Source of the DNA: Phycisphaerae bacterium
GTDB taxonomy: Bacteria; Planctomycetota; Phycisphaerae; UBA1845; UTPLA1
Direction: 5' to 3'
Length of the DNA: 64,000 nucleotides
Assembly (NCBI GenBank): GCA_035399845.1
Contig: DAOPJV010000001.1
Coordinates: 45,872 to 109,871, forward strand
Of the stretch, positions 21,504 through 39,216 are shown piece by piece. Below the pieces are notes generated by a model. It was not told the origin of the DNA and did no database searches. It worked only from the letters and a program-made list of their open reading frames with translations. Made by a program: the position numbers and the translations under genes. Each line of letters starts with the position of its first letter. Position 1 is the stretch's first letter.

Positions 21504-21762
21504 CGACGTCGTGATCGGTCGTTGGTAGCGTTATCAGTCGGAGTAAATATGGGGCGATCGTCAACCGACGACTGGGGTTTGCGGCTGCGAATCGCCTATA
21601 ATTTATGTTCGTTTCCCGCATTGCGATCTCATCCGGGGGCGTTGCGGGTGGCGGAAGGTGGAGTGGTTTTCGTTCTCAATCGTCAGGGTGGACGTGACAC
21701 GTGCGAGCGGCACGCGCGCAGGATGTCTCGTTGATTCCCCATTCTGATTCTGGAGGTAGTTG

Positions 21763-24700
21763 ATGTTCTCAAAGTTCATGTTCCGCGCGAGCGGTGTGGT
21801 CGGCGCCGTTGCGCTGGTGATGTGGGGGGCGACTGCGCTGACGGCGTCGCGTCAGAATGAAGACAGGGCGGCCCGCGCGGTTCAGGCTGAAGCGCCGAGG
21901 GTGGCGCCTGCGACGGACGTGGACATTGTTGCGGAAGCGGAGACGGAGATTCCGCCCGCGGCGTCTGTGGATGAGAGCATCGCGCGAGTCCAGGAACTCG
22001 CGACGGGGATGACGGCGTCCGGGGAATCGGGCATGCAGGTCTGTTTCCAGGCCGGGACGCCGCAGGAAGTGGTTTCGTCGTTCTGCGAAGTGAATCCTCT
22101 CCTGTGTGGAGAGATGCCCGACGGCAGCCCGCGGTTTCAGTTCGCCTTCCGCTGGCCGGGAACCCTGGGAACTCCTCGTTCGCTGACATGGAGCATTGTG
22201 CCGGACGGCGTGGCGATCACGTCCGTCGGTGGCAGCCCGGGCAGCGAGGTCTTTTCGCGACTGGATTCGCAGTTCTCGAACAATGGTGGCCGCGCCGTAT
22301 GGATCGGCCTGCTCGAGGATTGTTTCGATCGATGGTCCGAACTCTCGGGCACGAGCTACACGCGCATCACGTCCGGCGGCAATGACTGGGATGATGGCGC
22401 CGCATGGGGAACCTCGGGTGGCGCGGGTCGAGGAGACATCCGAATTGCGATGGTCAATCTCGACGGGCCGAACAACGTTCTTGCGTTCAACAGCTTCCCC
22501 GGCAGCGGCACGGGCGGCGACATGGTGCTCGATCGGTCGGAAACGTGGGACCAGACGTCCAACAACTTCCGGTTCCTTCGCGACGTCGTGATGCACGAAC
22601 ACGGCCACGGTCTCGGTTTCGAGCACGTCTGCCCGATTATTCCGACGTCCAACGGCCGATTGATGGAGCCGTTCATCAACACGAATTTCGACGGACCGCA
22701 GCATGACGACATTCGCGTCGTGCAGTTCGCCTACGGCGATGCGTTCGAATCGAATGACACGTCCGCGACGGCGACCAATCTCGGCGCCGTGTCGATCGGC
22801 CAGACGCTCACGCCCGGGACAGTGCCCGCGCCCACGCCCACGTCGGCGAGTTCGCTGTTGAGTATTCACAATAACGGTGATCAGGACTTCTACAGCATCA
22901 CGACATCCGAGCCGACGAGCCTCATCGTCACCGTGTCGCCGCTGGGGTTCTCGTATGACTCAAGCGTTCAGGCGTGCGGCACGTTCGGCGATGACTGCTG
23001 CTCCGGCAACGTCATCAACAGCCTGACGATGGCCGACCTCGAGCTGCAGGTGATTTCGACGAACGGCACATCCGTTCTCGCGACGGCCGACACGCAGGGC
23101 GTCGGGCTGCCGGAAACGATCTCGAACGTCGTTCTCGGCGCGGCCGGCACCTACTTCATCCGCGTTTATGAAGGAAACACGCCGACGGAGAGTCAGCTGT
23201 ACAGCCTGTCGATTCAGGTGCAGACCTCTTCCATCGTTCAGGCGGAGATCTCGCTCCCCAACGGGGCGCCATCCACGCTGACGCCCGGACAGCCGACGAC
23301 CTTCCCGGTTCAGATCGATCCGAACGACGCCACGATTACGCCGGGCAGCGAAGTCCTCGTCTATTCGCTCGGCGGCCAGGTGAACTCGACGCCGCTGACG
23401 CCGCTCGGCGGAAACATGTGGGAGGCGACGTTCCCGCCGGCGACGTGTGATGACACGCCGTCCTTCTTCATCTCGATCTTCGCCACTGTGGCCAACACGT
23501 CGACCTTCGTTCGCATGCCCGTCGGGGCGCCGACGGATCAGTTCCGGCCGATCGTTTCGAGCGGTCAGACGACGTTCTTCTCCGACAACGGCAATACCGA
23601 CATGGGCTGGACGGTCTCAGGCAACGCAACCGCCGGTATCTGGAATCGTGGCGCGCCGCTGGGTGGTGGTGATCGCGGTGATCCCGCCGCCGACTCGGAT
23701 GGTTCCGGCCAGTGCTGGCTGACGGACCGGGCGGATGGCGACACGGACGTGGACGGCGGAACGACGACGCTGACGTCGCCCGTATTCGATCTCTCGAACG
23801 GCGGTGTCATCAGCTACGACTACTGGTTCAATGACACGACGGGCGGCCAGTTCGATTCCGACACGTATGTCGTCGAAGTGGCGACGGACGCCGGAGGTAC
23901 GAACTGGACGGCGCTTCGCACCTACACGACGTCGTCGAGCGCCTGGCGATCCGACTCGATCACTGTCGGCGCCGAAGTCGCGGCGTCATCGACGATTCGT
24001 GTGCGATTCTCCGTGTCCGATCTTGGCGCCGGCACGGTTGTCGAGGGCGGCCTGGACGCCATCGAAGTGACGACCACTGAGTGTGTTGACGCTCAGGTGC
24101 CCCCGGCGGCGCCGACGGGCGTGAGCGCTTCGACCAACAGCTTCTGCGATCGCGTCAGCCTGTCATGGACGGCGTCTGTCGATGCGGATGACTACGACGT
24201 CTATCGAAACACGGTCGATAACTCCGGTTCCGCCACGCTGCTTCAGTCGGGCGTTCTCGGCGTGAGCTATGACGATATGACCGCGACGCCCGGCGTGAAC
24301 TACTTCTACTGGGTGCAGGCGTGCAACGGCGCCGGATGCAGCGGCTTCAGCAGCCCGTCGGCGTCGGGCGCTGCCGCGACAGCCGTCACGCAGGTCACAG
24401 GCGTCAACGCGACGGACACCAACTGCGGAAACGTTCAGGTGACCTGGTCCGCCGTCACGAGCGCGACGAGCTACGAGATCTTCCGCAATACCGTGGATGA
24501 CAGCGGCTCGGCGACGATGATCGGTTCGTCGGGGACGACGAGCTACACCGACAACGCCGCCATCGCCTACACGGGCTACTTCTACTTCGTTCGGGCGACG
24601 AACGCGTGTGGCGCCGGGGCCTTCTCACTGAGCAACCCCGGCATGGCGCTGGCCGCTGGCGCGCCGCCCGCGAATCTGGCCGCCAGTAATGATCGCTGCA

Positions 24701-25641
24701 CCGACGTGAGCGTGACATGGGACGCCGTGCCGGACGCTGTCCTTTACGAGGTGTTCCGAAACACGGTCGACAACTTCGCGACAGCGTCGCTGGCCTATGT
24801 CGTGTTCGCGCCGGACGTGATCGATAACTCGGCCCTCGTGAACACCCCTTACTTCTACTGGGTGCGATCGACCAACTCGTGCGGCGCCGCGACGCCGACG
24901 GTTTCCGCCTCGGGTATTCGCGTCGGCGGGCTGGCGACGGCGCCGTCCAATGTCGCCGCGTCCGACGATCAGTGCGGCATGGTTCGCGTGACCTGGGACG
25001 CCCTCGTTGGCGCCACAAGTTACGAAGTCTTCCGCAACACGGTCGACAACCCCGGCACGGCGACGTCGCTCGGAACGACGGCTGCGACGATGTTTGACGA
25101 CAACACGGCGACGCCGTCCGTGACGTACTTCTACTACGTCTCGGCCAGCAACGCCTGTGCCGCCGGTCCGCTGAGCGCGGGCGACAGCGGCGTCACCTCC
25201 GACGCCCCGATGGCGCCGACGAACGTCGCCGCGACGAATGACGCGTGCGGTCTCGTCGAGGTCACGTGGGACAGCGTCGCCGGCGCGACGAGCTACGAAG
25301 TCTTCCGCAACACGGTCGACGATGGTGGTTCGGCGGTCTCACTGGGGACGATCGGCGTGACGAGCTTTGACGATGCGAGCGCCGCCGACGGCGTGACGTA
25401 TTTCTACTTCGTCAGCGCTTCGACGGATTGTGGTGACACGGGCCTCAGCGCCAGCGCCAGTGGCGAGACAGGTCTCCTCGGCGACATGAATCGCGATGGC
25501 GACATCAACGGTCTCGACGCCCAGGGATTTGTCGGCGCCGCAATCGGAACCTACGACACGTGTGCGGATCTGGTGGCGCCGTTTGGTGTGATCGATAACG
25601 ACGATCTGCTGGCGTTTGCCGCCCTGTTGCTCGGCGCGTAA
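21763..25641 (+). CDS. Paralogous secreted metzincin with 5 Fn3-like repeats and a dockerin-like C-terminus
   Basis: GGAGG at 21753-21757. The signal is MFSKFMFRASGVVGAVALVMWGATALTA. It has HEHGHGLGFEH, the PPC motif GDAFESNDTSATATNLG, GDRGDPAADSDGSGQCWLTDR...DVDGGTTTLTSPVFDL, five repeats of ...C..V.VTW.AV..A.SYE(V/I)FRNTVD..G.A..., and the C-terminus GDMNRDGDINGLDAQGFVGAAIG. Confidence 0.9.
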   Translation: MFSKFMFRASGVVGAVALVMWGATALTASRQNEDRAARAVQAEAPRVAPATDVDIVAEAETEIPPAASVDESIARVQELATGMTASGESGMQVCFQAGTPQEVVSSFCEVNPLLCGEMPDGSPRFQFAFRWPGTLGTPRSLTWSIVPDGVAITSVGGSPGSEVFSRLDSQFSNNGGRAVWIGLLEDCFDRWSELSGTSYTRITSGGNDWDDGAAWGTSGGAGRGDIRIAMVNLDGPNNVLAFNSFPGSGTGGDMVLDRSETWDQTSNNFRFLRDVVMHEHGHGLGFEHVCPIIPTSNGRLMEPFINTNFDGPQHDDIRVVQFAYGDAFESNDTSATATNLGAVSIGQTLTPGTVPAPTPTSASSLLSIHNNGDQDFYSITTSEPTSLIVTVSPLGFSYDSSVQACGTFGDDCCSGNVINSLTMADLELQVISTNGTSVLATADTQGVGLPETISNVVLGAAGTYFIRVYEGNTPTESQLYSLSIQVQTSSIVQAEISLPNGAPSTLTPGQPTTFPVQIDPNDATITPGSEVLVYSLGGQVNSTPLTPLGGNMWEATFPPATCDDTPSFFISIFATVANTSTFVRMPVGAPTDQFRPIVSSGQTTFFSDNGNTDMGWTVSGNATAGIWNRGAPLGGGDRGDPAADSDGSGQCWLTDRADGDTDVDGGTTTLTSPVFDLSNGGVISYDYWFNDTTGGQFDSDTYVVEVATDAGGTNWTALRTYTTSSSAWRSDSITVGAEVAASSTIRVRFSVSDLGAGTVVEGGLDAIEVTTTECVDAQVPPAAPTGVSASTNSFCDRVSLSWTASVDADDYDVYRNTVDNSGSATLLQSGVLGVSYDDMTATPGVNYFYWVQACNGAGCSGFSSPSASGAAATAVTQVTGVNATDTNCGNVQVTWSAVTSATSYEIFRNTVDDSGSATMIGSSGTTSYTDNAAIAYTGYFYFVRATNACGAGAFSLSNPGMALAAGAPPANLAASNDRCTDVSVTWDAVPDAVLYEVFRNTVDNFATASLAYVVFAPDVIDNSALVNTPYFYWVRSTNSCGAATPTVSASGIRVGGLATAPSNVAASDDQCGMVRVTWDALVGATSYEVFRNTVDNPGTATSLGTTAATMFDDNTATPSVTYFYYVSASNACAAGPLSAGDSGVTSDAPMAPTNVAATNDACGLVEVTWDSVAGATSYEVFRNTVDDGGSAVSLGTIGVTSFDDASAADGVTYFYFVSASTDCGDTGLSASASGETGLLGDMNRDGDINGLDAQGFVGAAIGTYDTCADLVAPFGVIDNDDLLAFAALLLGA

Positions 25642-26706: not shown

Positions 26707-26780
26707 GGGCGCTTAGCTCAGTTGGCTAGAGCATCTCGCTTACACCGAGAGGGTCGGGGGTTCGAGTCCCTCAGCGCCCA
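26707..26780 (+). tRNA. tRNA-Val (anticodon TAC)
   Basis: Hand-folded cloverleaf. Acceptor GGGCGCT/AGCGCCC, D stem GCTC/GAGC, anticodon stem TCTCG/CGAGA with loop CTTACAC, T stem GGGGG/CCCTC (one G-T pair) with loop TTCGAGT, discriminator A. No CCA is encoded. Confidence 0.9.
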
Positions 26781-28032
26781 ATCCCGCCATTTTGTCTAAA
26801 TACGAATCAGATTGAATAGTGACGAAAACCCCTGTATTTGCAGGGGTTTCCGCGCGTTCGTCGTCGATCGCGTTCTCGTCCGTGCAAGGCGATTCCTGCA
26901 CAGACTGCAGCGCATTCTGCAGCGCTTCGCAGCGCGCCGCCCGATCGAAGTGCTCGTCCGTGATCTGCAGGTAGTGCTTTTGTGCGACCGTCTGCGAGTT
27001 CCCGATCCAGGCGCAGACGACATGGGCCGGATAGGTTTCGGCCAGCTCCGTCTCACGGGTCGATCGGAGATTGTGAAAGAGTTTCGGCCACGGCTGGAGC
27101 TTGGCCCGTGCGATGATCCGCTTGAGCTGGGTCCGCAGGTTGACGGATGTATCCCGATAGCGGGAGATCAGGAATTCCGCCCCCGGCTCGGCCAGCTCGA
27201 AAGCGTCCTCCAGCAGGGGGCGCAACTCGGGAAAGATCGGGATTTCGCGGGACTCGCCCCCGACGTGATGCTCGGTCTTGGGGCTCGGGACCGTGATCCG
27301 GGACCGATCCCAATCGATGTGATCCCAGCGAATCGCCAGTGTCTCGGAGGGGCATCGGACGCCGCCGTATCGCGACAGGCCGAACAGGAGCCGCCATTCG
27401 GCGTCCGGGCATTTGTCGATGATCCGCTCGGCGTCGGCTCGGGAGACGAAATACTCGCGGGTCTTGTTCGCCCGGATCGCCCCGACCAGATGGCCGAATG
27501 GGTTTTCGCGGATCAGCTTCCGACGGACCGCCGCGCGAAAGAACTGTTTGGCAATCCCGCAGCGTCGTCGGCAGGTGTTGTCCGACAGCTCTTCCGTCGA
27601 TTTCAGGTTCGCCCGCCACGCGTCGGCGTCGGCTTCCGTGATCGTCCGCAGGGGCTTGTCCTTGCCGAAGTAATCAATCAGGTTGCGGCGCGTGTGTCCC
27701 CAGATCGTGCGCGTCGAGTCCTTCACGTCGGATCGCTCGGCGAAGTAGGCGTCCAGAAATTCGCCGAGCGTTGCGATGATCGCCTTGGGGATCAGATCGA
27801 CTGCCGCGAGCTTGTTCGTCATTGGGGCGTCGAGCTGGGCGATCCATCGGGCGGTTTCATCGGGGACTGCGTGTCCCGTGATCGACGCCGAGATCAGATC
27901 CTCGACACGCAGCTTGACCGACTCGGCGGCGCGACGCGCGACCTTGCCGAGCCGGATCGTCTGGCGCTTTCCGGCGCGATCGTAGAACTGGATCAGGCGG
28001 CGTCCGTCTTTGAGTTTCGAGATACTGGCCAT
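26740..28032 (-). CDS. int: Tyrosine recombinase (phage-type integrase)
   Basis: SAM-like N-terminal domain. Catalytic-type residues are ...GGVRCPSETLAIRW..., HNLRSTRETELAE and AQKHYLQ (Tyr). The 3' end overlaps the tRNA, and the stop TAA is the reverse complement of the anticodon-loop TTA at 26740-26742. Confidence 0.9.
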   Translation of the reverse strand: MASISKLKDGRRLIQFYDRAGKRQTIRLGKVARRAAESVKLRVEDLISASITGHAVPDETARWIAQLDAPMTNKLAAVDLIPKAIIATLGEFLDAYFAERSDVKDSTRTIWGHTRRNLIDYFGKDKPLRTITEADADAWRANLKSTEELSDNTCRRRCGIAKQFFRAAVRRKLIRENPFGHLVGAIRANKTREYFVSRADAERIIDKCPDAEWRLLFGLSRYGGVRCPSETLAIRWDHIDWDRSRITVPSPKTEHHVGGESREIPIFPELRPLLEDAFELAEPGAEFLISRYRDTSVNLRTQLKRIIARAKLQPWPKLFHNLRSTRETELAETYPAHVVCAWIGNSQTVAQKHYLQITDEHFDRAARCEALQNALQSVQESPCTDENAIDDERAETPANTGVFVTIQSDSYLDKMAGLGAEGLEPPTLSV

Positions 28033-28118
28033 GTTTCAATCCTTCGGTAGTCTGAAGTAGACACTTGTAGTCTACCTTGCGCTTCCGTGCGGCGCAATTC
28101 AATTCCATGCATGATTCT

Positions 28119-30830
28119 CTAATCGGTGCCGATGTAACCCGTGAGTCGCCGCGCTTCGGCTTCGGCGTCGTCGCGCGATAGTCCGCCTTCGTGTTCGAGG
28201 ATGGCGGCGCGTTCTTCGTAGGCGTCGCGCAGCTCGTCCGCAGATTGTTCGGGGATTGAATCGCCCGAATCGCCCATACCGCCCGCGGCTGTTGAATCGC
28301 TCGCATCGGCAGCGCACTGGCTTGCATCGGATTCGGGCGGTACGTCGGGCGGTCCGGGCGGATCGGGGGCGTCAACCGCCCGACGATCGCCCGCCGTTCG
28401 TTCGTCGCCGTTCGCATCGTTTCGACTCTGCACATCGCAACTGGCGGATTGGGCGGTCTGGGCGGTTCGTCGCAGGGAATATCTGCGAGTCTTGTCCGTT
28501 TTGCGCGGGGTGATGACATCAACGCCAACAGCGCCGAGCGCAGGCGCGAGGCGCTTCAGGCGTCCCGACATTGCGCAGGCGTTGCGGGGCCACTTCGGCG
28601 GCGCTTGCTCGGGCGTGATCCGCTTGAGCAGTTCGCCCGCCGGTCCCTCCCATTCGCCGCATGATTGCACGAGCTGGACGATCGCCGCGCCCACGGGATC
28701 GTCGTCGATGATCGTCGCCGCAATCTGACCACGCTGGCCGAGATAAAGGTCGAGCGCATTCGTTCCCAATACGGCGTCCATCGCCGCCAGGATGCGAGAG
28801 AAATCCGCGAGGCGATCCGATGGGGGGATCTCCGTCGATTCGAGTAGATCCATCACGGGCGCGACGATATCGAGAAGCGCTCCAAGTATCCGGGGCCATC
28901 GTTCGGCGAATGCCGAGTGTAGCGCCGACTCGGATCGTCGCCGGGTTTCGTCGATGCGTTCCAGTTCCACGAGCAGCAGACGCGAGCCCAGATCGCCTTG
29001 AAGTGATCCGGCGTCGATGCTCGTGATTGCAACGACTCGCCGGAATTGTGTGATTGCGAGATCGCCGTCAGTGTACAATTTGCGGCGGATATGACCGTCG
29101 CCCGTGGACGCCTTGCAGAGCGCATCACTCCACCAATGCGGAATCGCGGAGACGTTGTCGATCATCACGCCCCAGCTTCCCGCCGCCGCCGTCGCCCAAG
29201 ACTCGATATCTTTCGGTTGCGACCGGCGCGGGACGGGGCTCGGATCGAACAGCGTGACGAGAATGCCGCCAACGGTTGACTTACCGCTTCCCGCCATGCC
29301 GCCAATCATCAGGATCGGGTGATCGATGTCCGGCTTAAATGCCGCTACGAGCCATCCGAGCAGCAGGGGCCAGGAATCGTCCGACACATTCAGCAGCTCG
29401 CGCAGCTCGGCGACATCGCCGCCGGGCAGGGGCTCGGGCAGCTCGTTTGTAAGCGCTGTCCGTCGGAACAGCACAGGCGATTCGCCTGTAACCCGCCACG
29501 CGCCGCGCTCGATGATGATCGCCCGACCGTCGGCGTCGCCGATGTCCACGACGATTCGGCCGTCAGTTTCGACGATCCGCAGGTGGATCGGCTCGCGCTC
29601 CGCGTGATACGCCTGTCCGCTCAGCGCCGTCATTGCGTCATTCAGTGCCGACGCGCTCGGGACCTTTTGGTAGGTCGCAAGATACCGCCGCGACAACTCG
29701 CTTCTTACGGCGTCCCTTCCCCCGCGGAGCATTAGCGCGACGTTGGGACCGCCCCGACGAACAGCGAACGGTTCCCCGTCGTTGGATTGGCCGATGCGGT
29801 ATTCGTCTTGCGCGAGCTGAATCAGCAGCTCCGCCTGCGTCGGCGGTTTTCCGGGCTTCGATTCCTTCGCGTTTTCCTTCAGCGTGGCGAGCAGCTCCGC
29901 CCCCGCCGCCTTGCACGCATCCGCGTTCGACGTATCGAGGCCCGCGGTAAGCCGTTGGGCGAGCCATGCGCGAATGTCCTTTGCGCCATCTGGCGGTAGG
30001 GTCCACGCGACAGGCTCCCGCCATTCGGACGCCAGCCGTTTTGCGATCGACTTCGCGCCATCACGACCGGGCCAGGCGCCGCCGTCCTTCCCGTCATTCT
30101 CACCGACGACGATAACCGCCACGCCGTCCAGCAGCTCCGCGAGCTGTTCACCGCCGCCGGTGTTTGACGGACGCCCGACGGCCCGGAGCTGGAGCGACTC
30201 GCAGGCCGCGACGTCGGACGCGCCTTCGACGATCAGGACGGGGCCGGCGCGATTCCGCAGGGATGTTGGGACAATCAGGCCGCGGCGCGATCCCGTGTCG
30301 CCCTTCGGCGAGCCCTTGGCGCCATCGGGAGCGCGAAGAGATACGCCGACGATCCGCCCGCGTCCGTCCCGCTCGGGGAACGCGCATGCGCCGCTGGGCC
30401 GTTTGGCTTTCCAGGAGTCGCCGCCGCTCGCGCGGTATCGCTTCAGGTCCGCCGTCGTCGCCCAGCCGACGCCGATGGATCGAAGCGCGTCGGGCGAGAC
30501 GCCGAGCGTCGCCGCCAGCTCTGCCAGTGCGCCGTCCGCGAGCTGTCCCGTGAGCCGTTTCGATTCAGTGTTCCAGTCGATCGCCGACGGGGCGGGGGGG
30601 CGAGTATCTTGGCGGATCGGCTTCCGCGACGATCTCCGCGGCGAGCCGCCGCAGTCATCGACGGGCCGGAATATCGCGCCGCCATCCTTCGGCTTCACGA
30701 GCCGCATTCCAGGCGGCGCTCCGGTTGATCGTTCGCACTTCAGTGCGCCATCGTCGGCCCACGCGCACCAGTCCGGCTTCTTGCAGGCGGGACAGGGCTT
30801 GCGCTTAGTAACGGGTGTCCAACGCGTCAT
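28119..30830 (-). CDS. Primase-helicase: N-terminal Zn-binding motif, Toprim domain, P-loop NTPase (P4 alpha / D5-like)
   Basis: CPACKKPDWC...C at the N-terminus. Toprim-like LIVEGASDVAACE...VIVVGENDGKDGG. Walker A MIGGMAGSGKST with a downstream hydrophobic-D (VMIDNV). The ATG overlaps the stop of the upstream HTH gene as ATGA. Confidence 0.8.
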   Translation of the reverse strand: MTRWTPVTKRKPCPACKKPDWCAWADDGALKCERSTGAPPGMRLVKPKDGGAIFRPVDDCGGSPRRSSRKPIRQDTRPPAPSAIDWNTESKRLTGQLADGALAELAATLGVSPDALRSIGVGWATTADLKRYRASGGDSWKAKRPSGACAFPERDGRGRIVGVSLRAPDGAKGSPKGDTGSRRGLIVPTSLRNRAGPVLIVEGASDVAACESLQLRAVGRPSNTGGGEQLAELLDGVAVIVVGENDGKDGGAWPGRDGAKSIAKRLASEWREPVAWTLPPDGAKDIRAWLAQRLTAGLDTSNADACKAAGAELLATLKENAKESKPGKPPTQAELLIQLAQDEYRIGQSNDGEPFAVRRGGPNVALMLRGGRDAVRSELSRRYLATYQKVPSASALNDAMTALSGQAYHAEREPIHLRIVETDGRIVVDIGDADGRAIIIERGAWRVTGESPVLFRRTALTNELPEPLPGGDVAELRELLNVSDDSWPLLLGWLVAAFKPDIDHPILMIGGMAGSGKSTVGGILVTLFDPSPVPRRSQPKDIESWATAAAGSWGVMIDNVSAIPHWWSDALCKASTGDGHIRRKLYTDGDLAITQFRRVVAITSIDAGSLQGDLGSRLLLVELERIDETRRRSESALHSAFAERWPRILGALLDIVAPVMDLLESTEIPPSDRLADFSRILAAMDAVLGTNALDLYLGQRGQIAATIIDDDPVGAAIVQLVQSCGEWEGPAGELLKRITPEQAPPKWPRNACAMSGRLKRLAPALGAVGVDVITPRKTDKTRRYSLRRTAQTAQSASCDVQSRNDANGDERTAGDRRAVDAPDPPGPPDVPPESDASQCAADASDSTAAGGMGDSGDSIPEQSADELRDAYEERAAILEHEGGLSRDDAEAEARRLTGYIGTD

Positions 30831-31024
30831 CGGCCCGCCCCTTCCCGCTGAGCCGCATCAGATTGTTCGGCGATCCACGCGTCAATCTGGGCGGAGGGCC
30901 ATCTAACGGAACGTCCCAAGCGGATCGGTTCGGGTAACTTCCCGGCGGCCAGTAGCTTCCACAATTGGCGTTCTGAGATACACAGTCGCTTGGCGACGGT
31001 TCGAGCAGTTTCGAGTTCGGACAT
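30827..31024 (-). CDS. AlpA/excisionase-family HTH DNA-binding protein
   Basis: MSELETARTVAKRLCISERQLWKLLAAGKLPEPIRLGRSVRWPSAQIDAWI matches the HTH_17/AlpA pattern (...RW....). The start was moved to the ATG at 31024. Confidence 0.7.
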   Translation of the reverse strand: MSELETARTVAKRLCISERQLWKLLAAGKLPEPIRLGRSVRWPSAQIDAWIAEQSDAAQREGAGR

Positions 31025-31092
31025 AACAATTCTCCCGTCGGCAACACACAATCGCGTTGCGGACGAGAGAAAACGTAAGTCCGGATTCGGTT

Positions 31093-31176
31093 CTGCAATT
31101 TGCAATTGCGCTAATTGCAGAATTGCAGTGATTGCCTAGGAATTGCTGCGAAACAAATTCGTAATGATAATTGCGA
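31093..31176. repeat. Iteron cluster: 6-7 copies of AATTGC(A/G/T) at 8-11-bp spacing, plus an inverted copy
   Basis: aattgc occurs at 31104, 31113, 31121, 31141 and 31169. Variants are aatttgc at 31097 and gattgc at 31130. ctgcaatt (31093-31100) is the inverse of aattgcag. The palindrome gcaattgc lies at 31102-31109. Confidence 0.7.
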
Positions 31177-31195
31177 GGCGTGGGTTCTGGCCTTG

Positions 31196-31876
31196 CTACT
31201 TGGCGAATTTGCGAACGTCATCGCGATGGTAGAGTTTTCGTACCTTCTTGCCTTGGTCATCGTGGAAGCCACGTGGAGCTTTTCGGGTACGTATCTTCGG
31301 TGGACAACTGTTTGCCGCCCGCGACAGTTCATGAGGAAGGACGCCGTAATGCTGTTGCGCTTGTGATGCCGTGATGAAGTTCTCATAGGCCCGGCTATCT
31401 CTCTCGCCTGGCTTTATCCGGTTTCGTGAGTGGTCTCCAGTTTCAGCTATCTCGGCTTGACGTTCGAGCAGGTGTCGCAGCTTTGGGAGCCACTTTCGGA
31501 GCGGCTCGATTGTCAAGTCCGTTTCAACGTAAACTGTGTCTGGTGGCGTGTTCCGAAATCCGGCACTAGCGCCGGGAACAATTGGCCTGTGCAAGAAAAA
31601 AGGGGGGGTGTTCCGGTTATTGTGTTTGTACATCGGCTCGACCTGCATTCGCAGGAAGCCAAAACGCTGGTCGATTTCATGCGTATCCGAACGCGGAAGC
31701 CGTCGCCGCAGGATGTCCATCGATCGAGCCGCTTGTAACACAAGCGATGCGATGTCCTTGAAGAAGAATCCCTTCATGCCATTGCCCACTAGATCGAACC
31801 CCGAGTTAGATAGGTAATCGGAGAGTCGCTTCCAGGGGTCGTATAGTAAATCGACTTCGTTGGCTGCGTTTCGCAT
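31196..31876 (-). CDS. Hypothetical island protein (226 aa), possible C-terminal HTH
   Basis: Coding-like composition from the ATG at 31876 (MRNAANEVDLLYDPWKRL...). The C-terminal ITASQAQQHYGVLPHELSRAA...KLYHRDDVRKFA looks HTH-like. I recognise no family. The track ORF's upstream extension overlaps the divergent gene's leader. Confidence 0.45.
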   Translation of the reverse strand: MRNAANEVDLLYDPWKRLSDYLSNSGFDLVGNGMKGFFFKDIASLVLQAARSMDILRRRLPRSDTHEIDQRFGFLRMQVEPMYKHNNRNTPPFFLHRPIVPGASAGFRNTPPDTVYVETDLTIEPLRKWLPKLRHLLERQAEIAETGDHSRNRIKPGERDSRAYENFITASQAQQHYGVLPHELSRAANSCPPKIRTRKAPRGFHDDQGKKVRKLYHRDDVRKFAK

Positions 31877-32042
31877 CGGTGATACCCTCGCCGCCGGATC
31901 GCGCCGAACGCGTCGACAGTCGGGTATCGATGCCGCCGACGCGTCCAGCGCCCCAAAATCTGATTTGGGCCGGTATTTCAATTGTAAGGGGCGGCGCACA
32001 CACCGAGAATACCGTAGAATGGGCGTGAATCGAGGTGGACAT

Positions 32043-33314
32043 ATGAGAATCACGTCAACCGAGCGGGCATGTTTCGGCGTGTCGTTGATCGTCCTATTGG
32101 GTATTGCGTCTTCACTGAGTGCATGTGATCCCGAGTGGACTCTGATTGGAGATGTAGACGGCGCGATATTCGATATTGCGATGATCGATCTGGGGGGAGG
32201 TCCCAGCCTATACGTGGCTGGCGACTTTAGCGCTATTGATGGCGTGAGCGCCAACAACATCGCACGACTGACCAGCTCGGGATGGGAGCCTCTGCCGGGG
32301 GACGGATTCCTAACGGGAAATCAGACGCGAATCCGGGCAATTGGCGAATTCAATGGTGAGTTGTTTATCGGCGGCTCCAGCTTCCCGAGTAACTTCGGGT
32401 GCAATCACGTTGCCAGGTTCGACGGAGCCTTGTGGGATCTTATCTTCGGAGACTGCGTTCTCACGGTTACTACAACAGTCGAGTCGATCGGCGGGCTCCT
32501 GTATATAGGCAGCGACGACGCGCCGGGCGGGCTCCTCACTTGGGACGGATTCGGTGCGAGCACGATTACGACAGATCGCGTGCGAGACATTGTAGAGTAT
32601 TCCAATGGTATCTACGTGGCCAAGTCGTTCGAGAGCGGTGGTGGTGTATGGTCGATCGCGCCCGGAGGTTGGGTTGATATTGCCAACAGCAGCTTCGCAA
32701 CCAATCTCACTACGTGGAACGGCGACCTCTTCGCGGGTGGCGGGTTTGACGCATTTGGTGGCGCTCCAGGGACCAACAACATTTCCGCATGGGACGGTGT
32801 ACAGTGGCGCCGTCTTGGAGCGGGGACAAATGGGCCGGTTCAAGCTTTGTCGGCGGTTGAATCCGGACTCATGAACGGACTATATGTCGGAGGCGATTTC
32901 TCGTTTGCAGGCAGCGCCATCACGAACAAGATTGCGAAATGGAATGGAGTGAATTGGGAGCCAGTTGGAGAAGGTCTGCCAAGCCCAGTAACGAGAATTC
33001 TCGCAACGCCTTCCGCCGTGTTTGCGGCCAGCTACGATGTTTACATGTGGGCCTGCCCGAGCGCCACGAATGATTGCGACGGAGACGGAACGCCAGACGA
33101 TCAGGAGTGTGACTTTGACGGTGATGGCGTCATCGATGATTGTGATGACGATGTGGACGGGGATGGCGTCCCAAACGAGTTTGACCTATGCCAATTCACC
33201 AATCCCGAAACCGCAGTTGACGGTGACGGTCGCCCGCGTGGCGACATGAATGATGATTGTCTCTTGAATGGAGTAGACCTTCAGCTCTACGTATCAGCGC
33301 TCTTAGGTCACTGA
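32043..33314 (+). CDS. Island-borne lipoprotein: repeat (propeller-like) region, thrombospondin-type-3-like Ca loops, dockerin-like C-terminus
   Basis: GAGGTGG RBS before the ATG at 32043. The lipobox-type signal is VSLIVLLGIASSLSAC. Repeated W(D/N)G...W..LG units are present. DCDGDGTPDDQECDFDGDGVIDDCDDDVDGDGVPNEFD is followed by the terminal GDMNDDCLLNGVDLQLYVSALLGH. Confidence 0.7.
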   Translation: MRITSTERACFGVSLIVLLGIASSLSACDPEWTLIGDVDGAIFDIAMIDLGGGPSLYVAGDFSAIDGVSANNIARLTSSGWEPLPGDGFLTGNQTRIRAIGEFNGELFIGGSSFPSNFGCNHVARFDGALWDLIFGDCVLTVTTTVESIGGLLYIGSDDAPGGLLTWDGFGASTITTDRVRDIVEYSNGIYVAKSFESGGGVWSIAPGGWVDIANSSFATNLTTWNGDLFAGGGFDAFGGAPGTNNISAWDGVQWRRLGAGTNGPVQALSAVESGLMNGLYVGGDFSFAGSAITNKIAKWNGVNWEPVGEGLPSPVTRILATPSAVFAASYDVYMWACPSATNDCDGDGTPDDQECDFDGDGVIDDCDDDVDGDGVPNEFDLCQFTNPETAVDGDGRPRGDMNDDCLLNGVDLQLYVSALLGH

Positions 33315-33372
33315 CGCCGATGACGATCCCGCTATCGTTACATCACACGCGTTGCTCGTGTGTATCGTTCCA

Positions 33373-33648
33373 CTAGACAAAAGAAAAGTCCACGCCCCGT
33401 ATTATTTTGGCCGGAACAAGCCGCCCCAGTTCATCGTGACTCCCGCACGACAGGAATGCGAAGACGTCGCTCCCGATTTCGATTTGCGTTATCCCGCCCG
33501 GATCGTAGATGCCCGCCAGGATCGCCGAGAATGCGGCGCGAGCGCAATCTGTGCAAAGCGACATAGCGTGACTTTCAGCGCCCGCGAACGCCACGATGCG
33601 ATCGTTGGCGGGCGTGGCGCCGCAATCGGGACATGCGCAACGATTCAC
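33373..33648 (-). CDS. Small zinc-ribbon protein
   Basis: The GTG start at 33648 is preceded by AGGAG and overlaps the upstream stop as GTGA. The sequence is VNRCACPDCG...(22 aa)...CTDCARAA, i.e. two Cys pairs. Confidence 0.45.
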   Translation of the reverse strand: MNRCACPDCGATPANDRIVAFAGAESHAMSLCTDCARAAFSAILAGIYDPGGITQIEIGSDVFAFLSCGSHDELGRLVPAKIIRGVDFSFV

Positions 33649-33998
33649 GATTTCTCCTGATTCCGCATCGCGGCGATCGCAGCGAATAACGTCGGCATTC
33701 TTTCCCCTCCCGATGTCAAGTCTTGTCGGTCCGACTGCTGTAGGTGTTGCTTGCCGCACCAGATCAGCATCGTCGGGTTTCCGCTGATTGCCGCCGAGTA
33801 TTGCGCCTGCAGGAGCGCCGCCTTGCCCGCCGCTCTTTTTTGGGCGCAAAGTTCCCCGAAATTCCGTCGGAACGTCTCTTCCGCTATCCCCAACGATCGG
33901 GCAATCGTCAGGTCCCGACATTGGGCGACGGCCATCGACTCGACTCTAGCGAGCTGTTCGGCGCTCAACTTCAGCTTGGGGCGTCCACGAGTAGCCAT
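33645..33998 (-). CDS. HTH protein resembling phage small-terminase / gp3-type DNA-binding proteins
   Basis: MATRGRPKLKLSAEQLARVESMAVAQCRDLTIARSLGIAEETFRRNF...AISGNPTMLIWCGKQHLQQSD follows the pattern GRP....E.......G....IA..LGI...TF.......GN....IW..K commonly seen in terminase small subunits. This is from recall only. Confidence 0.5.
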   Translation of the reverse strand: MATRGRPKLKLSAEQLARVESMAVAQCRDLTIARSLGIAEETFRRNFGELCAQKRAAGKAALLQAQYSAAISGNPTMLIWCGKQHLQQSDRQDLTSGGERMPTLFAAIAAMRNQEKS

Positions 33999-34169
33999 GC
34001 CGGAATCCTATGTTTGAGCAATAATGATGATCGAGCCCATTGCTGATGCATCAACGGGGCTTTGAATCAATAGATCCGCTCAATATGATATGCAATTGTT
34101 GGAATCAGGGCACAATTCGAATTAAGACTTGGGGCGCGACAAGGCCGGACATCGATGGGAGGATGTCTC

Positions 34170-35024
34170 ATGGACTTCTGTGCAGTAGATGTCGAAACGG
34201 CGAATCCCGACCTGGCGTCGATTTGCCAGCTTGCTGTCGTAACGTTCAAGGATGGACGCGCCATCGATGAATGGGCGACATACATCGATCCCGATGACTA
34301 CTTCGATCCCTGCAACGTTTCGATACACGGGATTGACGAGGAGACTGTCGATGGGGCGCCGACATTTCAAGAGGTTTCGGAACAGCTACGCGCGGTTCTA
34401 GGGGCGCGCGTGGCTGTTTGCCACACGCATTTTGACCGCGTCGCAATCAACCGAGCTTCCCATGGCTGGAAAGTGCCTGCGCCACAATGCACATGGCTGG
34501 ATTCTGCGTGTGTAGCTCGGAGGGCATGGCCGGAGTTCGCTTCGCAGGGATATGGGCTCAAGAGTATCTGCGAATCGCTTTCCTACGAATTCAGACATCA
34601 CGACGCGCTTGAGGATGCGAAGGCTTGCGGACACATTCTGATATCGGCGGGGAAAAAATGCGGGCTGGAACTAGACGGATGGATGAAACGAGTGCGACAG
34701 CCGATTGACCCCACGGAATCCGAACCGATTAGAAGGGAAGGGAATCCAGAGGGACCCTTATACGGCGAAATCCTGGTCTTTACGGGGGCACTTGAGTTGC
34801 CCAGGCGAGCGGCGGCCGACATTGCAGCGCAGCTCGGTTGTCGTGTGGATAGTGGCGTCACGAAGAACACGACGTTGTTGGTTGTCGGCGATCAGGACGT
34901 GACCAAACTGGCCGGCCACAAGAAGAGCGCCAAGCATCGCAAGGCCGAGCAAATCATAGAAAAAGGGGGGGCCATTCGTATTCTCAGGGAGACGGACTTC
35001 AAGGAGCTTGCATCGCAAGTCTAG
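34170..35024 (+). CDS. DEDDh 3'-5' exonuclease (DnaQ-like) fused to a BRCT domain
   Basis: Exo I FCAVDVETANPD, Exo II VCHTHFDRVAI, Exo III HHDALEDAKACGHIL. The C-terminal ILVFTGAL...RRAAADIAAQLGCRVDSGVTKNTTLLVVGD is BRCT-like. The ATG at 34170 has a GGGAGG RBS, and the track start at 34155 is also possible. Confidence 0.8.
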   Translation: MDFCAVDVETANPDLASICQLAVVTFKDGRAIDEWATYIDPDDYFDPCNVSIHGIDEETVDGAPTFQEVSEQLRAVLGARVAVCHTHFDRVAINRASHGWKVPAPQCTWLDSACVARRAWPEFASQGYGLKSICESLSYEFRHHDALEDAKACGHILISAGKKCGLELDGWMKRVRQPIDPTESEPIRREGNPEGPLYGEILVFTGALELPRRAAADIAAQLGCRVDSGVTKNTTLLVVGDQDVTKLAGHKKSAKHRKAEQIIEKGGAIRILRETDFKELASQV

Positions 35025-35213
35025 CAATCACAAATCTCAACTAGTTGGCAGATCTTTCGTCGCGCGACGTCCGATAGCTTCGGCCAAGCCGCGATGATCC
35101 GAGCCAGATCGGGGTCGATTTCGCCCGAAACTGCAGCGCTCGCAGCGCATTCTGCAGCGCTCGCCTTGGGTGAGATTCGTAAGTCCTTGCAATCACAGCT
35201 CGTTACGTCGCCA

Positions 35214-35235
35214 GGTTCGAGTCCCTCAGCGCCCA
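35214..35235 (+). repeat. attR: duplicated 3' end of tRNA-Val
   Basis: ggttcgagtccctcagcgccca is identical to 26759-26780. Confidence 0.85.
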
Positions 35236-35299
35236 GTTCACTTCTTTTCACGACGTAACGCTTACGAATCAATGACGAACACGCCGGGGTCCTTCCGGA

Positions 35300-35603
35300 T
35301 CGCGCGCCGGTTGTCGCGCGCGATTCCGTGCCGGGCCAGTCATGGCTCGGCCCTTCCGTCGGTCGTTGCGCGGCTCGTCGATCGGTTACGTGCGATTGAG
35401 CGATGGTTGTTGCATGGCGACTGCCGCCTGACTGCGGCGGCTCGGTGTGGGGCGACTCGGCGGCCAGGACGGTGAAGGCGGTGGCTCGGCCTGTCTCGCT
35501 GCGCTGGCCTGTTCCCTGGCGGTCACAGTTCGGTCATGCGCGCCCGGCGTGCGGTTGCGAGCCGGGCCGGTCATGGCTCGGCCTTTCCGTCGGTCGTTGC
35601 GCG
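35300..35603 (+). repeat. Long modular repeat, array 1 (one full ~245-bp unit plus a truncated unit)
   Basis: The unit runs: hairpin ccgagccgggccagtcatggctcgg; ttccgtcggtcgttgcgcgg...; hairpin ccgccgcctgactgcggcgg; then the core cgctgcgctggcctgttccctggcggtcacagttcggt (35497-35534). The second unit breaks after cggtcgttgcgcg at 35603. Confidence 0.85.
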
Positions 35604-35615
35604 TGCTGTTGTCGA

Positions 35616-35906
35616 TCACTCGCCACCATTTATTGTCCGAACGAATCCGATGATGCACCAGACGATTCCCAACACCCACGTCGGTATTACCAGAAACCAA
35701 CCGCCGTAGGACGACGTCAGCCAGTGTGCGTTGTTACGGCGGGAGGACTTCCAATACTCGTATCGAATGCGCAGATCAAAGAATGCAACCAGGGGTCCGC
35801 CGAAGAGCATGACAGTCGAATGGTCAAGACTCCCTCCCCCCAGAATTCCGACGCCATAGACCGAGCCAAGCCCCAATAGCGCCGAACAGAATCCCAATTT
35901 GTTCAT
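35616..35906 (-). CDS. Small membrane protein (about 96 aa) inside an A/T-richer insert
   Basis: MNKLGFCSALLGLGSVYGVGILGG...GGPLVAFFDLRI...GGWFLVIPTWVLGIVWCIIGF has three hydrophobic helices. The start is uncertain, since in-frame ATGs exist upstream as far as 36125. Confidence 0.5.
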   Translation of the reverse strand: MNKLGFCSALLGLGSVYGVGILGGGSLDHSTVMLFGGPLVAFFDLRIRYEYWKSSRRNNAHWLTSSYGGWFLVIPTWVLGIVWCIIGFVRTINGGE

Positions 35907-36246
35907 GAGAAGAAAGCCACCTGTTGAATCAGATGCGAACGACCTATGCAGGTAGTTACGTATGCTCCTCATGACCGACATCCTACCAGAACCAATTCGG
36001 CGACTCATTGAAAACACGGGATATCCGATGGGACCCGACACGATCAGGGGCGGCGGACGGTTCAAATACCGCCGACGGATTAGGGTCCCATCTGGACCGA
36101 ATGGCATTCGATCCCGCAATGCCATTGGAAGTGGGTGGGACGGCCGGGGTCATTCGCACTCGCGATCGGGCAATTCGCTGTCAAACCTCCCTTTGTCACG
36201 GGCATTGTTGATGCGGGGGCGTGATTGGAACTCGAATCGGTCGTTG

Positions 36247-36705
36247 CGCGGTTCGTCGATCGGTTACGTGTGGTTGAGCGATGGTTGTTGCATGGCGACC
36301 GCCGCCTGACTGCGGCGGCTCGGTGTGGGGCGACTCGGCGTGGCGCGAGTCGGCGGCCAGGACGGTGAAGGCGGTGGCTCGGCCTGTCTCGCTGCGCTGG
36401 CCTGTTCCCTGGCGGTCACAGTTCGGTCATGCGCGCCCGGCGCGCAGTTCCGAGCCGGGCCAGTCATGGCTCGGTTTCTCCGTCGGTCGTTGCGCGGTTC
36501 GTCGATCGGTTACGTGCGATTGAGCGATGGTTGTTGCATGGCGACCGCCGCATGACTGCGGCGGCTCGGTGTGGGGCGATTCGGCGTGGCGCGAGTCGGC
36601 GGTCAGGACGGTGAAGGCGGTGGCTTGGCCCGCTGTGCTGGCCTGTTCCCTGGCGGTCACAGTTCGGTCATGTGCGCCCGGCGCGCGGTTCCGAGCCGGG
36701 CCGGT
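36247..36705 (+). repeat. Long modular repeat, array 2 (5'-truncated unit, one full unit, start of a third)
   Basis: The period is about 246 bp: ggtcgttgcgcggttcgtcgatcgg occurs at 36249 and 36486. Core modules are at 36390-36427 and 36631-36668. The array ends 15 nt from the stop of the reverse-strand kinase gene. Confidence 0.85.
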
Positions 36706-36720
36706 AGTGGTCAATGCTGC

Positions 36721-39216
36721 TCATTCAGAAACGGAGTTTCGCTGGCGCCAGGCCGCGGCCTGGTCCGGGGCGTTCACGTTGTCGAACAGGATCGCCAGGT
36801 CGTCTCGAATTCGATGGATCATCGCCGGGTTCACCGGCGCCATCTCCTCGCCGCGCTGCTCGATCGCCAGCAGGATCGTCTTCGCCTCGTCGTATCGCTT
36901 CAGCCGCATGAGGCATTCGCCACGAATCATTTCCACTGTCATGACGGGGGCGCTCGACGCGTCAAAGAACCGTGTTCGCTGGCTCGACGCGTCGTCGAAG
37001 TACTCGAGGGCCTCGGCGAATTTTCCGCGCAGGCACAGGAGTGAGCCGAGATTGAGCAGGTTGGTCGCGAGGTCGGGATGACCCTCCGGATGAACCCGGC
37101 GGTAAATCGACGTCGCCTGGCGAACCAGTTCGATCGCCTCGTCGATGCGATTCTGCTGCGCCAATATCACGCCGAGGTTGTCGAGGCTCTGGGCAATCGT
37201 CGGATGGTCTTCCGGCAGTTGCGCGCGGCGAATTTCCAGCACGCGGCGGCCGAGCGTTTCGGCGCCGGCGAAGTCGCCGCGCGCCCGCAGAGCGCTCCCC
37301 AGGTTGTTCAGCGACTCTGCAAGCTCCAGCGACACGGGTCCGCAGACGCGCTCCCGAATCTCTGCGGACTCTTCCAGCAGCGCCAGCGCCCGATCCAGTT
37401 CGCCCCGCGCACGATGAATCGACGCCAGGTTGTTGAGGTCCTGGGCCGTCGCCGCCGACTCGGCGCCCGAATACCCGCGGCTGATGTCGAGCGCCTTGCG
37501 GGCGTATTGCAGGGCGTCATCCAATTGGCCCGCCTCGTAACAGACGGCGCCAAGCTCACGATGCGCGCCTGCGAGCCGCTCGCTCCGACATCGGGCGACG
37601 TGTTCGTCTTCGGGGACCTGCTCTGCGAACCGAGACTCGATGTCCAGGGCGCGCCGGAGATGTGTCATCGCATCGGCGTAGAGGCCGAGGCCCGCGTACG
37701 TCTTGCCGATGGCCGAGTGGATGGCGGATTCAAGGGCCGGATCGTCAGCCAGCTCGGCGGCCATGTTCGCTGAGGCCGCCTTGAGCACGTCGACGACCTT
37801 GACATCAATTCCGTTTTGAGAGGGATCGGCGGCCGTCATCATCGATTGCAGGAACTCAACGACGGCGGCGGATCGATGCGATTCGGCGTCGGCGAGTTGC
37901 GCCTGTTTCTCCGCGAGTTCGCGGGCCGCGATCGCGCTCGTCCGCTGCGTTGTCGCGACGCGATAGAGCAGGCTCATGCCGATCGTCCCGCCCAGCATCG
38001 CGACGACGGCCAGCAGCGTCGCGATCGTGGCGCCACGATTGCGTTTCACGAATCGATGCAGTCGATAGATCGTCGTCTGCGGTCGGGCCTCGATCGGGCG
38101 CCCCTGCAGATGGTGGCGAATGTCATTGGCGAACTGCTCGACGGATCGGTATCGCTCCTCCGCCGAGCGGCGCATCGCTTTCAGAACAATCGCGTCCAGA
38201 TCACCCGCGAGGCGACGCCGGCGCTGAATGCTCGCCCGCAGCGTCTGCGAATCACTGTCCTGAGCCGCCCGGGCCAGGACCGCGCTGGGCCTGTCGGGAT
38301 CGATTTCACAGATGATCCGTTCCAGTTCGTAGAGCGGCCGATGGGCTCCGTGAAACGGATGGACGTCCGTCAGCAGTTCGTAGAGAACGACGCCGAGCAT
38401 GTAAATGTCGGTCCGCGTGTTGATAGGCTCGCCCAGGATCTGCTCGGGGCTCGCATACGCCGGCGTCATGTGTCGCCCGGCCGTTGTCACGCCGATTGCG
38501 TCATTCGGTTTCTGGTTCACGAGTTTCGCGATGGAAAAGTCGAGCAGTTTGCAGGCGCCATCATCGGAGACGAGGATGTTGCTCGGCTTCAGGTCGCAGT
38601 GAACGATCAGGTTTTCGTGGGCGCACTGCACGGCGTCGCACACCTGCAGAAAGAGCTCAAGTCGCGCATCGATATCGAGGTGGTCCTCCCGGCAGACATC
38701 CGTGATGGTCCTGCCCTCGACATACTCCATCACGAAGTAGGGGCAGCCCTCGGCGCTGACGCCGGCGTCGAGCAGCCGCGCGACGTGAGGATGATCGAAG
38801 GTCGCCAGCGCCTGGCGTTCGCGCTGGAATCGCCGGACCATGGCGCCATTCATCACGTCCTGTCGGATCAGCTTGATCGCGACGATCTTGTCATACTGAT
38901 CATCGGCTCGGCGCGCGGCGAAGACGTGTCCCATGCCGCCGGACGCGATGAACCGCGTGATCTCGTAGGGGCCGAGATGTGCGCCGATCAGCAGCGTCGG
39001 GTCGTCGCCGGGGGCGGGCGAATGATGGCTCAGCTGGAAGACCGGCGTTTCGAAGTGCGACGGCGCTGAGTCGTGGGCGTCGAGCAGCGATTGGAGTTCG
39101 CTCAACATCGACGCGTCATTGTCGCAGGCGCGACGGAGCCAGGGCTGGCGCTTGTCGTGATCCAGTTCACAGGCGGAGTCAAACAGACTCCTCATTCGAC
39201 GCCATCGTTCGTCCAT
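36721..39216 (-). CDS. Ser/Thr protein kinase with TM helix and TPR repeats (ECF-sigma partner)
   Basis: The N-terminal MDERWRRMRSLFDSACEL...LLDAH is typical of kinases paired with TIGR02999-type sigmas. Kinase motifs are GGMGHVFAARR, AIKLI, HCDLKPSNILV, DFSIAKL and TPAYASPEQ. The TM helix is IATLLAVVAMLGGTIGMSLLY. There are multiple TPR units (NNLAS/NNLGS/DNLGV). Confidence 0.9.
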   Translation of the reverse strand: MDERWRRMRSLFDSACELDHDKRQPWLRRACDNDASMLSELQSLLDAHDSAPSHFETPVFQLSHHSPAPGDDPTLLIGAHLGPYEITRFIASGGMGHVFAARRADDQYDKIVAIKLIRQDVMNGAMVRRFQRERQALATFDHPHVARLLDAGVSAEGCPYFVMEYVEGRTITDVCREDHLDIDARLELFLQVCDAVQCAHENLIVHCDLKPSNILVSDDGACKLLDFSIAKLVNQKPNDAIGVTTAGRHMTPAYASPEQILGEPINTRTDIYMLGVVLYELLTDVHPFHGAHRPLYELERIICEIDPDRPSAVLARAAQDSDSQTLRASIQRRRRLAGDLDAIVLKAMRRSAEERYRSVEQFANDIRHHLQGRPIEARPQTTIYRLHRFVKRNRGATIATLLAVVAMLGGTIGMSLLYRVATTQRTSAIAARELAEKQAQLADAESHRSAAVVEFLQSMMTAADPSQNGIDVKVVDVLKAASANMAAELADDPALESAIHSAIGKTYAGLGLYADAMTHLRRALDIESRFAEQVPEDEHVARCRSERLAGAHRELGAVCYEAGQLDDALQYARKALDISRGYSGAESAATAQDLNNLASIHRARGELDRALALLEESAEIRERVCGPVSLELAESLNNLGSALRARGDFAGAETLGRRVLEIRRAQLPEDHPTIAQSLDNLGVILAQQNRIDEAIELVRQATSIYRRVHPEGHPDLATNLLNLGSLLCLRGKFAEALEYFDDASSQRTRFFDASSAPVMTVEMIRGECLMRLKRYDEAKTILLAIEQRGEEMAPVNPAMIHRIRDDLAILFDNVNAPDQAAAWRQRNSVSE

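Follow-up and report, generated by a model that had tools for sequence, protein, structure and literature searches.

What becomes of an integrase gene whose reading frame runs straight through the attachment site at which its own element recombines? This question is raised by a 64,000-nucleotide (nt) stretch of DNA from a Phycisphaerae bacterium of the phylum Planctomycetota (assembly GCA_035399845.1, contig DAOPJV010000001.1, positions 45,872 to 109,871 of the forward strand), hereafter called the window, in which an island carrying a tyrosine recombinase gene, int, lies at the 3' end of a tRNA-Val gene. We consider it very probable that this gene belongs to a lambda-Int-like Planctomycetota integrase family in which the whole attachment site of the free element (attP) lies inside the 3' part of int, so that integration splits the open reading frame (ORF) and excision restores a form ending in a helical hairpin; with the same high confidence, which attaches to the explanation as a whole, positions 26759-35235 are taken to form an integrative element of 8.46 kb that has entered the tRNA-Val gene at its 3' end. 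Computational evidence shows that the ORF is split and rejoined, that this ORF is conserved throughout the family, that the hairpin is under selection at the protein level, and that two DNA words flanking the recombination core are constrained as DNA and co-vary. The features on which this account is built are the following.

26707..26780, plus strand: tRNA-Val(TAC) gene, the integration target (ARAGORN), whose 3' 22 nt are the attL core copy
26759..26780, no strand: attL copy of the 22-nt core (exact repeat), translated there by int as (L)GAEGLE(P)
35214..35235, no strand: attR copy of the 22-nt core, a displaced tRNA 3' fragment (exact repeat)
26740..28032, minus strand: int in its prophage form, a tyrosine recombinase of 430 amino acids (aa) (Pfam PF00589 and PF13102, catalytic residues, AlphaFold2 and Foldseek)
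35021..35213, minus strand: separated int 3' end, 63 codons and a stop, in frame with int only in the excised (attP) state (translation, homologues, rebuilt relatives)

The tRNA-Val(TAC) gene is the sole tRNA that ARAGORN finds in the window. Its 3' end carries the 22-mer GGTTCGAGTCCCTCAGCGCCCA, which recurs exactly at the far end of the island at a spacing of 8455 nt and is the only long exact repeat bracketing it. The bacterial attachment site (attB) is thereby placed in a tRNA 3' end, that of tRNA-Val in the window and of eleven tRNA types across the family. The integrase ends in ...MAGLGAEGLEPPTLSV*, with its last five codons (PTLSV) and its stop derived from the antisense strand of the tRNA gene; the positions overlapped by the TAA (26742..26740) are U33 and the first two of the anticodon.

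The int product matches PF00589 with E = 7e-9, above the family cut-off, and residues R226, K252, R323/R326, H337, W342 and Y354 are invariant in int alignments. Its architecture as predicted by AlphaFold2 is lambda-Int-like, with three domains, all of which are kept in the prophage form together with the catalytic Tyr354. The N-terminus is modelled as three strands (3-6, 12-17, 23-28) followed by a helix (33-52) with a predicted local distance difference test score (pLDDT) above 95, and the top Foldseek matches are full-length lambda Int structures (1z1b and 1z1g; 384 aligned columns including the N-terminal domain). The model is thus that of a separate N-terminal arm-binding domain of the heterobivalent lambda-Int type.

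At the other end of the island, the minus-strand ORF 35272..35021 translates as ...SELGAEGLEPGDVTS...QLVEICDC*. It reads the core in the same phase as int, and when int is joined through the core to position 35213 and downward, a single ORF of 488 codons results, with a tail of 63 residues in place of the five residues of the prophage form; the frame is kept for any crossover within the identical core. The only in-frame start of the tail ORF in the window is a TTG at 35272, outside the island, and its stop shares one CTAG (35021-35024) with the stop of the convergent exonuclease-BRCT gene, leaving zero intergenic space. The original prediction had described this arrangement, namely the int and attR ORF coordinates, the phase, the 8455-nt spacing, an int ending in PTLSV* within the antisense anticodon region, and an in-frame fusion upon excision to 35213-35021 that exchanges five residues for 63. 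ARAGORN, the repeat search and translation reproduce each of these statements, and the predicted fusion is found as a single ORF in relatives that appear to be in the attP state.

Such relatives emerged from a search with the rebuilt 488-aa protein as query, which returned 5,498 homologues, the best 120 of which were inspected for coverage. Three of these 120, P0026 (500 aa), P0031 (507 aa) and P0096 (484 aa), span 99% of the query, and their alignments extend over the rebuilt tail. Their contigs (L001-L003) have no tRNA gene and carry element or phage genes on both sides of int, including genes for AlpA, Prim-Pol, a PemK toxin and a Mu-like capsid protein. A viral contig from IMG/VR (L158) holds a fused ORF of 524 codons. 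To judge from their sequences, L001-L003 and L158 are elements in the unintegrated (attP) state. Phage genes are present on L002 and also on L164, whose fused ORF adjoins a terminase gene. A profile was built from the end of the catalytic domain, the core and the whole tail. Among its best 120 matches, about 37 cover at least 90% of its length in one ORF; these single-ORF proteins hold, in one chain, HVVCxWIGNS..HYLQVTD, ALQNPxQ, GxxGLE, GGAESGA and DPDLAxVIxAWPxLPxxxRxAILAxV. A sequence search of the PDB with the long form P0026 matched only the catalytic domain, to a Xer recombinase.

The integrated state was surveyed by a genome scan at one genome per species, which gave 80 loci, nearly all labelled Planctomycetota (Phycisphaerae, Planctomycetia, Pirellulales and others), 70 of them with a complete int ORF. 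The int ORF enters the antisense strand of a tRNA gene in 53 complete cases and passes through it in two more (55/70). The targets are tRNAs for Val, Glu, Leu, Asn, Tyr, Lys, Met, Ile, Gln and Phe and one call of tRNA-SeC, which make up the eleven types, and the T-loop is translated in one phase, as G-L-E, in 48 of 50. For five loci (L005, L036, L065, L070 and L072) a distal core copy was found within 10 kb, and the rebuilt ORF was in phase in all five: it stays open for 60-73 codons beyond the core and ends just after the common motif, and the other two frames usually close sooner.

The tail profile retrieved 253 proteins in a word-indexed search and 10,798 clusters at 50% identity in an exhaustive search. 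Nearly all of the best 150 matches end 0-3 residues from the protein C-terminus, and the best matches are nearly all short ORFs whose N-termini have no fixed position and fall within or ahead of the antisense-tRNA core. Judged by their sequences, these short ORFs, annotated as hypothetical, are the attR-side halves of split int genes, and for the very large Planctomycetota element family an integrase gene that spans its own attP is shown to be the norm.

The tail itself consists of parts under different constraints, and the C-terminal one is conserved as protein.

35024..35116, minus strand: C-terminal helical hairpin DPDLARIIAAWPKLSDVARRKICQLVEICDC (codon positions, AlphaFold2, GC content by codon position)

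The family motif DPDLAxVVxAWPxLPExxRxxIxAxV is conserved at codon positions 1 and 2 and free at the third (information content 0.05-0.6), a pattern indicating selection on the protein. The proportion of synonymous differences (pS) in the hairpin is as high as that of the unconstrained linker preceding it, and the proportion of nonsynonymous differences (pN) is lower. Comparison of the window with L162, the relative closest to it in the tail, shows DNA that diverges past AAWP and a residue pattern, xLSxxxRxxxxxLxx, that is kept; across the family the ORF always ends 0-15 codons past the motif. AlphaFold2 predicts for the fused protein two helices, 459-470 and 473-486 (pLDDT about 95), after a disordered stretch (372-453), and the tail folded alone gives the same hairpin (pLDDT 94-98).

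The other constrained part of the tail is conserved as DNA. The codon-position analysis covered 66 distinct tails, and since most of them came from a search seeded on the word GAESGAVG and confirmed by tblastn, the apparent protein conservation is inflated; tail sets gathered through int homology alone agree with the word-seeded set. Third positions in GGAESGAVGA are near-invariant (GAA in 64/66, TCC in 57/66 and GCA in 64/66) with codons unusual for a GC-rich genome, and pS is 0.35 in these columns versus 0.65 in the flanking columns. The apparent peptide motif GGAESGAV corresponds to the DNA word GGTGCAGAATCCGGTGCAG, with two direct GGTGCAG units 12 nt apart. In the window its counterpart contains the 19-mer GCGCTGCAGAATGCGCTGC, which occurs exactly twice (26907-26925 and 35142-35160; 0.07 expected), within two repeats.

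26896..26926, minus strand: P-arm repeat in int, translated EALQNALQSVQ, a putative arm-type Int-binding site (19-mer GCGCTGCAGAATGCGCTGC, weight matrix, co-variation)
35131..35161, minus strand: P'-arm repeat in the tail, translated SAAECAASAA, a putative arm-type site (same 19-mer, invariant third positions, pS)

The P and P' copies have the same orientation and lie in different reading frames. A weight matrix derived from the tails matches about 50 of 78 family int loci at one site each, +32 to +110 nt past the Tyr codon, where the family translation is A(L/V)QNPVQ, and almost nowhere else in these loci. The two copies co-vary from element to element (permutation p = 2e-4 to 6e-4): both are GCGCTGCAGAATGCGCTGC in the window, both GGCGCAGAAT.CGGCGCA in L072, and both GCGGCGCAAAA.GCGGCGCA in L002. 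The word measures 19-27 nt; a gap of 85-119 nt separates the end of the P copy from the core, and one of 41-52 nt separates the core from the start of the P' copy. By these sequence criteria the two words are probably arm-type binding sites, a reading that fits the lambda-Int-like predicted body with its N-terminal sheet and helix, and they would form a clear case of DNA-binding sites overlapping coding sequence in two frames.

This division of the tail also qualifies two expectations of the original prediction. Its description of the 63 residues as protein-like holds for the hairpin, where the motif AAWP.L....R..I..LV that it proposed to seek in homologues is conserved with a protein-type codon pattern, and fails for the middle part (SAAECAA). 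Its proposed check of GC content at third codon positions (GC3) in 35021-35213 gave a flat profile over the whole tail; when the tail is split, the hairpin codons (0.645 / 0.452 / 0.613 at the three positions) resemble those of the neighbouring island gene (0.624 / 0.448 / 0.614), and a coding pattern is missing only from the part made up of linker and arm site. We therefore rejected the flat GC3 as evidence against coding, as it arises because one part is constrained as DNA and another as protein.

A further stretch of int next to the core also seems to be held at the DNA level.

26781..26827, minus strand: AT-rich segment by the core, inside the int ORF (DNA conserved, GC3 collapses)

GC3 of the int body is about 0.8. 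The segment is nearly identical to L163:11200-11250, although the two int proteins share only 70% identity, which suggests a DNA-level constraint, perhaps core-type sites or sites for a bending protein. Between the P site and the core, 26826-26850 contains on the minus strand an inverted repeat of 9 bp without mismatches (aaacccctg / caggggttt) and, after it, a run of four T. We rejected this structure as an int terminator or a protein site; the palindrome is not kept in L163, the closest int relative, and a terminator scan made no call there. The attR of L163 was not found within its 11-kb contig.

Several findings weigh against the account given above. No excised-circle junction was observed for the window element, whose integrated island was found in several assemblies and is carried by the samples ENA ERZ27257452, ERZ795053 and ERZ27257486 and JGI 3300010349, and contigs L001-L003 have no terminal overlaps, which leaves a circular topology unsupported for these three. 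The int ORF stops before the tRNA gene in 5 of the 70 complete loci, and some homologues have only 378-392 aa and end near the end of the catalytic domain, so the tail is not universal and is dispensable in some lineages. Homologues of this kind had been named in the original prediction as a refutation; they do exist, yet most int ORFs (55/70) run into the tRNA gene. Neither Pfam nor NCBIfam yields a match to the tail, nor does Foldseek to its model, and for that reason no function can be transferred to the tail; the word-seeded origin of most tails has been mentioned above. In the window, 34.8% of the island's 64-codon windows, in any frame, have no stop, and the GC contents of the three codon positions show a flat profile for the tail as a whole (0.60 / 0.54 / 0.59). 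Because open frames are this common and the composition this flat, the window alone cannot separate a true fusion from chance, and the support for fusion rests on the related elements.

The same two properties, a stop-free share of about 35% and the flat composition, favour the view that 35021-35213 is merely the P' arm of attP, a set of DNA sites for Int and accessory proteins whose frame is open in the phase of int by chance, the genome being GC-rich, and which encodes no functional protein, and so does the fact that the most conserved peptide, GGAESGAV, is a DNA word that recurs and co-varies in int in another frame. We hold this to be highly improbable, given that the hairpin has conserved first and second and free third codon positions, that its residue pattern outlasts the divergence of the DNA (as between the window and L162), that the ORF end stays within 15 codons of the motif, that the int phase is kept in every attP-state or rebuilt case, and that AlphaFold2 predicts the hairpin confidently. 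The tail could instead be a separate protein, about 65-100 aa long, that has its own start near the core in both states, serves for example as a directionality factor or regulator, and is only incidentally fused to int; gene callers do report thousands of such short ORFs, and in many of them an ATG or GTG lies in frame at the core (MGDEGLE..., VGDKGLE...). The starts and N-terminal sequences of these ORFs are, however, unconserved, and many extend into the host flank; the start-like GTG derives from the antisense tRNA acceptor stem, no attP-state contig has a stop between int and tail, and the sole in-frame start in the window lies outside the island. This makes an independent protein very unlikely. 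That the exchange of C-termini is real and neutral, a by-product of attP having drifted into the 3' region of int with no regulatory effect, is in our view unlikely: it would suit the relatives in which int ends before the core and the unconstrained linker (pN/pS about 0.9), but a 130-codon open linker and a selected hairpin kept across thousands of clusters and eleven tRNA types are hard to explain if the hairpin has no function.

Under the preferred reading, an integrase family with attP inside int, the excised or incoming circle would carry int as a single 488-codon ORF. From its start, this ORF would run through the domains for arm binding, core binding and catalysis, the last with its Tyr at residue 354, then the P arm site (ALQNALQ), a disordered linker, the 22-nt core (GAEGLE), the P' arm site, which is the same DNA word in another frame (SAAECAA), and finally the conserved hairpin DPDLARIIAAWPKLSDVARRKICQLVE, of helix-turn-helix shape, and the stop. 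Recombination with the tRNA gene would cut the ORF at the core and leave a prophage enzyme of 430 aa with intact catalytic domains, no hairpin and five antisense-tRNA residues at its end; excision would give back the long form with its disordered linker of roughly 100 residues and the hairpin. The hairpin may alter the activity, assembly or directionality of Int. A two-helix hairpin with one hydrophobic face is expected to pair with a copy of itself or with a partner, and we would therefore guess at a tethered oligomerisation or partner-binding module favouring attP x attB integration. Its loss would then yield a less active prophage enzyme awaiting an excision signal; the AlpA/HTH_17 protein (30827-31105) is a candidate excisionase. 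By analogy with Myxococcus phage Mx8, we infer a built-in switch regulating recombination. A more far-reaching version of this proposal, which we advance tentatively, is that a phylum-wide family (thousands of integrases, more than 10,000 tail clusters) carries a complete attP in the int ORF, with both arm sites, as one word in two frames (ALQNPVQ and GAESGAV), and a tRNA-derived core, and that the hairpin, attached only when the element is excised, might act as a physical sensor of the integration state that sets directionality or activity.

In Mx8, attP lies within int and integration creates a new int 3' end (PMC6070905; noted in PMC4383910). The window family resembles the intP to intX conversion of Mx8 (and Mx9) in having attP inside the int coding sequence and a tRNA 3' end as the target, in swapping a C-terminal tail (112 residues in Mx8) for a few others with the catalytic domain intact, and in carrying a helix-turn-helix gene in the element (uoi in Mx8, an AlpA-like gene in the island). 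The Mx8 int (L161:5208-6809) also translates its tRNA-derived core in the same T-loop phase, as STGLEPV. The precedent of Mx8 put forward in the original prediction thus matches in geometry and not in sequence: Mx8 is absent from the tblastn matches at E <= 1e-3, its tail does not contain the AWPxLP hairpin motif, and we rejected homology to Mx8 IntP, tail included, since none was detected beyond the general tyrosine-recombinase fold. The window family differs further in its host phylum (Planctomycetota), in having the arrangement as a family-wide rule with a conserved terminal hairpin, and in showing arm words on both sides of the core inside the ORF. Magrini and colleagues are said to have found in 1999 that the prophage form of the Mx8 enzyme (IntX) is less active.

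Lambda integrase is the best structural match of the predicted int, and the likeness extends to the predicted N-terminal three-stranded sheet with a helix and to repeated DNA words, putative sites in the window family, that flank the core on both arms; in lambda, by contrast, attP lies outside int and the Int protein is unaltered by integration. The SSV-type archaeal integrases also have attP inside int and a gene changed by integration (PMC8371274; PMC4383910). Their gene is split into two separated parts, whereas the window family only exchanges a C-terminal appendage and its prophage int retains the three domains and Tyr354. In the integration-dependent immunity of mycobacteriophages BPs and Brujita, according to what Broussard and colleagues reportedly described in 2013, attP lies in the 3' end of the repressor gene and integration removes a C-terminal degradation tag. 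The window family shares with them an attP in a gene 3' end and a C-terminus changed by integration, along with which the behaviour of the protein would change; the affected gene is the repressor there and int here, and the tail ends in ...EICDC in the window, with variable C-termini and no common tag-like ending in the family. Literature searches found no description of this integrase family.

Some loci call for separate mention. In L007, L019, L047, L048 and L054, int ends 21-94 nt short of the tRNA gene and a tail fusion is impossible. Six others (L090, L112, L139, L143, L144 and L154) have two tail copies each, which suggests insertions in tandem or end remnants left at the same tRNA by previous elements; in the window, a second tail-like match on the host side of attR scored 0.4 bits and was dismissed as spurious. 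A 5'-truncated int still joined to its tail (L166:10001-10717) lies on a 48.7-kb contig among chromosomal-looking neighbours and may represent the decayed remains of an element that became fixed in its attP form. Two assemblies of the window island, L169 and L170, are broken within it, in the exonuclease gene and in the gene for a 903-aa protein, which could reflect mixed integrated and excised populations or just low coverage.

The remaining annotated genes of the island are these.

28119..30830, minus strand: candidate replication protein of the element, 903 aa, located upstream of int (ORF list, position)
30827..31105, minus strand: AlpA/HTH_17 protein, a candidate excisionase (recombination directionality factor) (Pfam PF12728 and PF05930)
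34155..35024, plus strand: cargo gene for an RNase_T-type exonuclease with a BRCT domain (Pfam), convergent with the tail

The 903-aa protein has no match in Pfam or NCBIfam and is a candidate replication protein because relatives carry a primase or replication protein (Prim-Pol or DUF3987) at its position. On the host side just past attR, 35316-36737 contains three direct-repeat families (57-171 nt, three copies each, 61-93% identity) that may be small repeat elements. At the other flank, 21760-25641 encodes a host protein of 1293 aa with repeated units of about 273 nt (YEVFRNTVDN...), and a peptidase_M10 match in Pfam was recorded for the matching gene of L167.

Until now, an enzyme that rewrites its own gene by integrating seemed an oddity of Mx8-like myxophages and archaeal SSV-type elements, and here this would be the normal design in a very large group of Planctomycetota elements. 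Its presence in such a group, at many tRNA targets, implies that the arrangement either has arisen repeatedly or has a much greater age and wider distribution than has been assumed. It would account for thousands of orphan hypothetical proteins in metagenomes as separated int 3' ends at attR, and it offers a simple rule for locating both ends of an island. With its long and short forms, defined hairpin and defined arm words, the family would provide a clean test system for how a C-terminal appendage may tune the directionality of a tyrosine recombinase.

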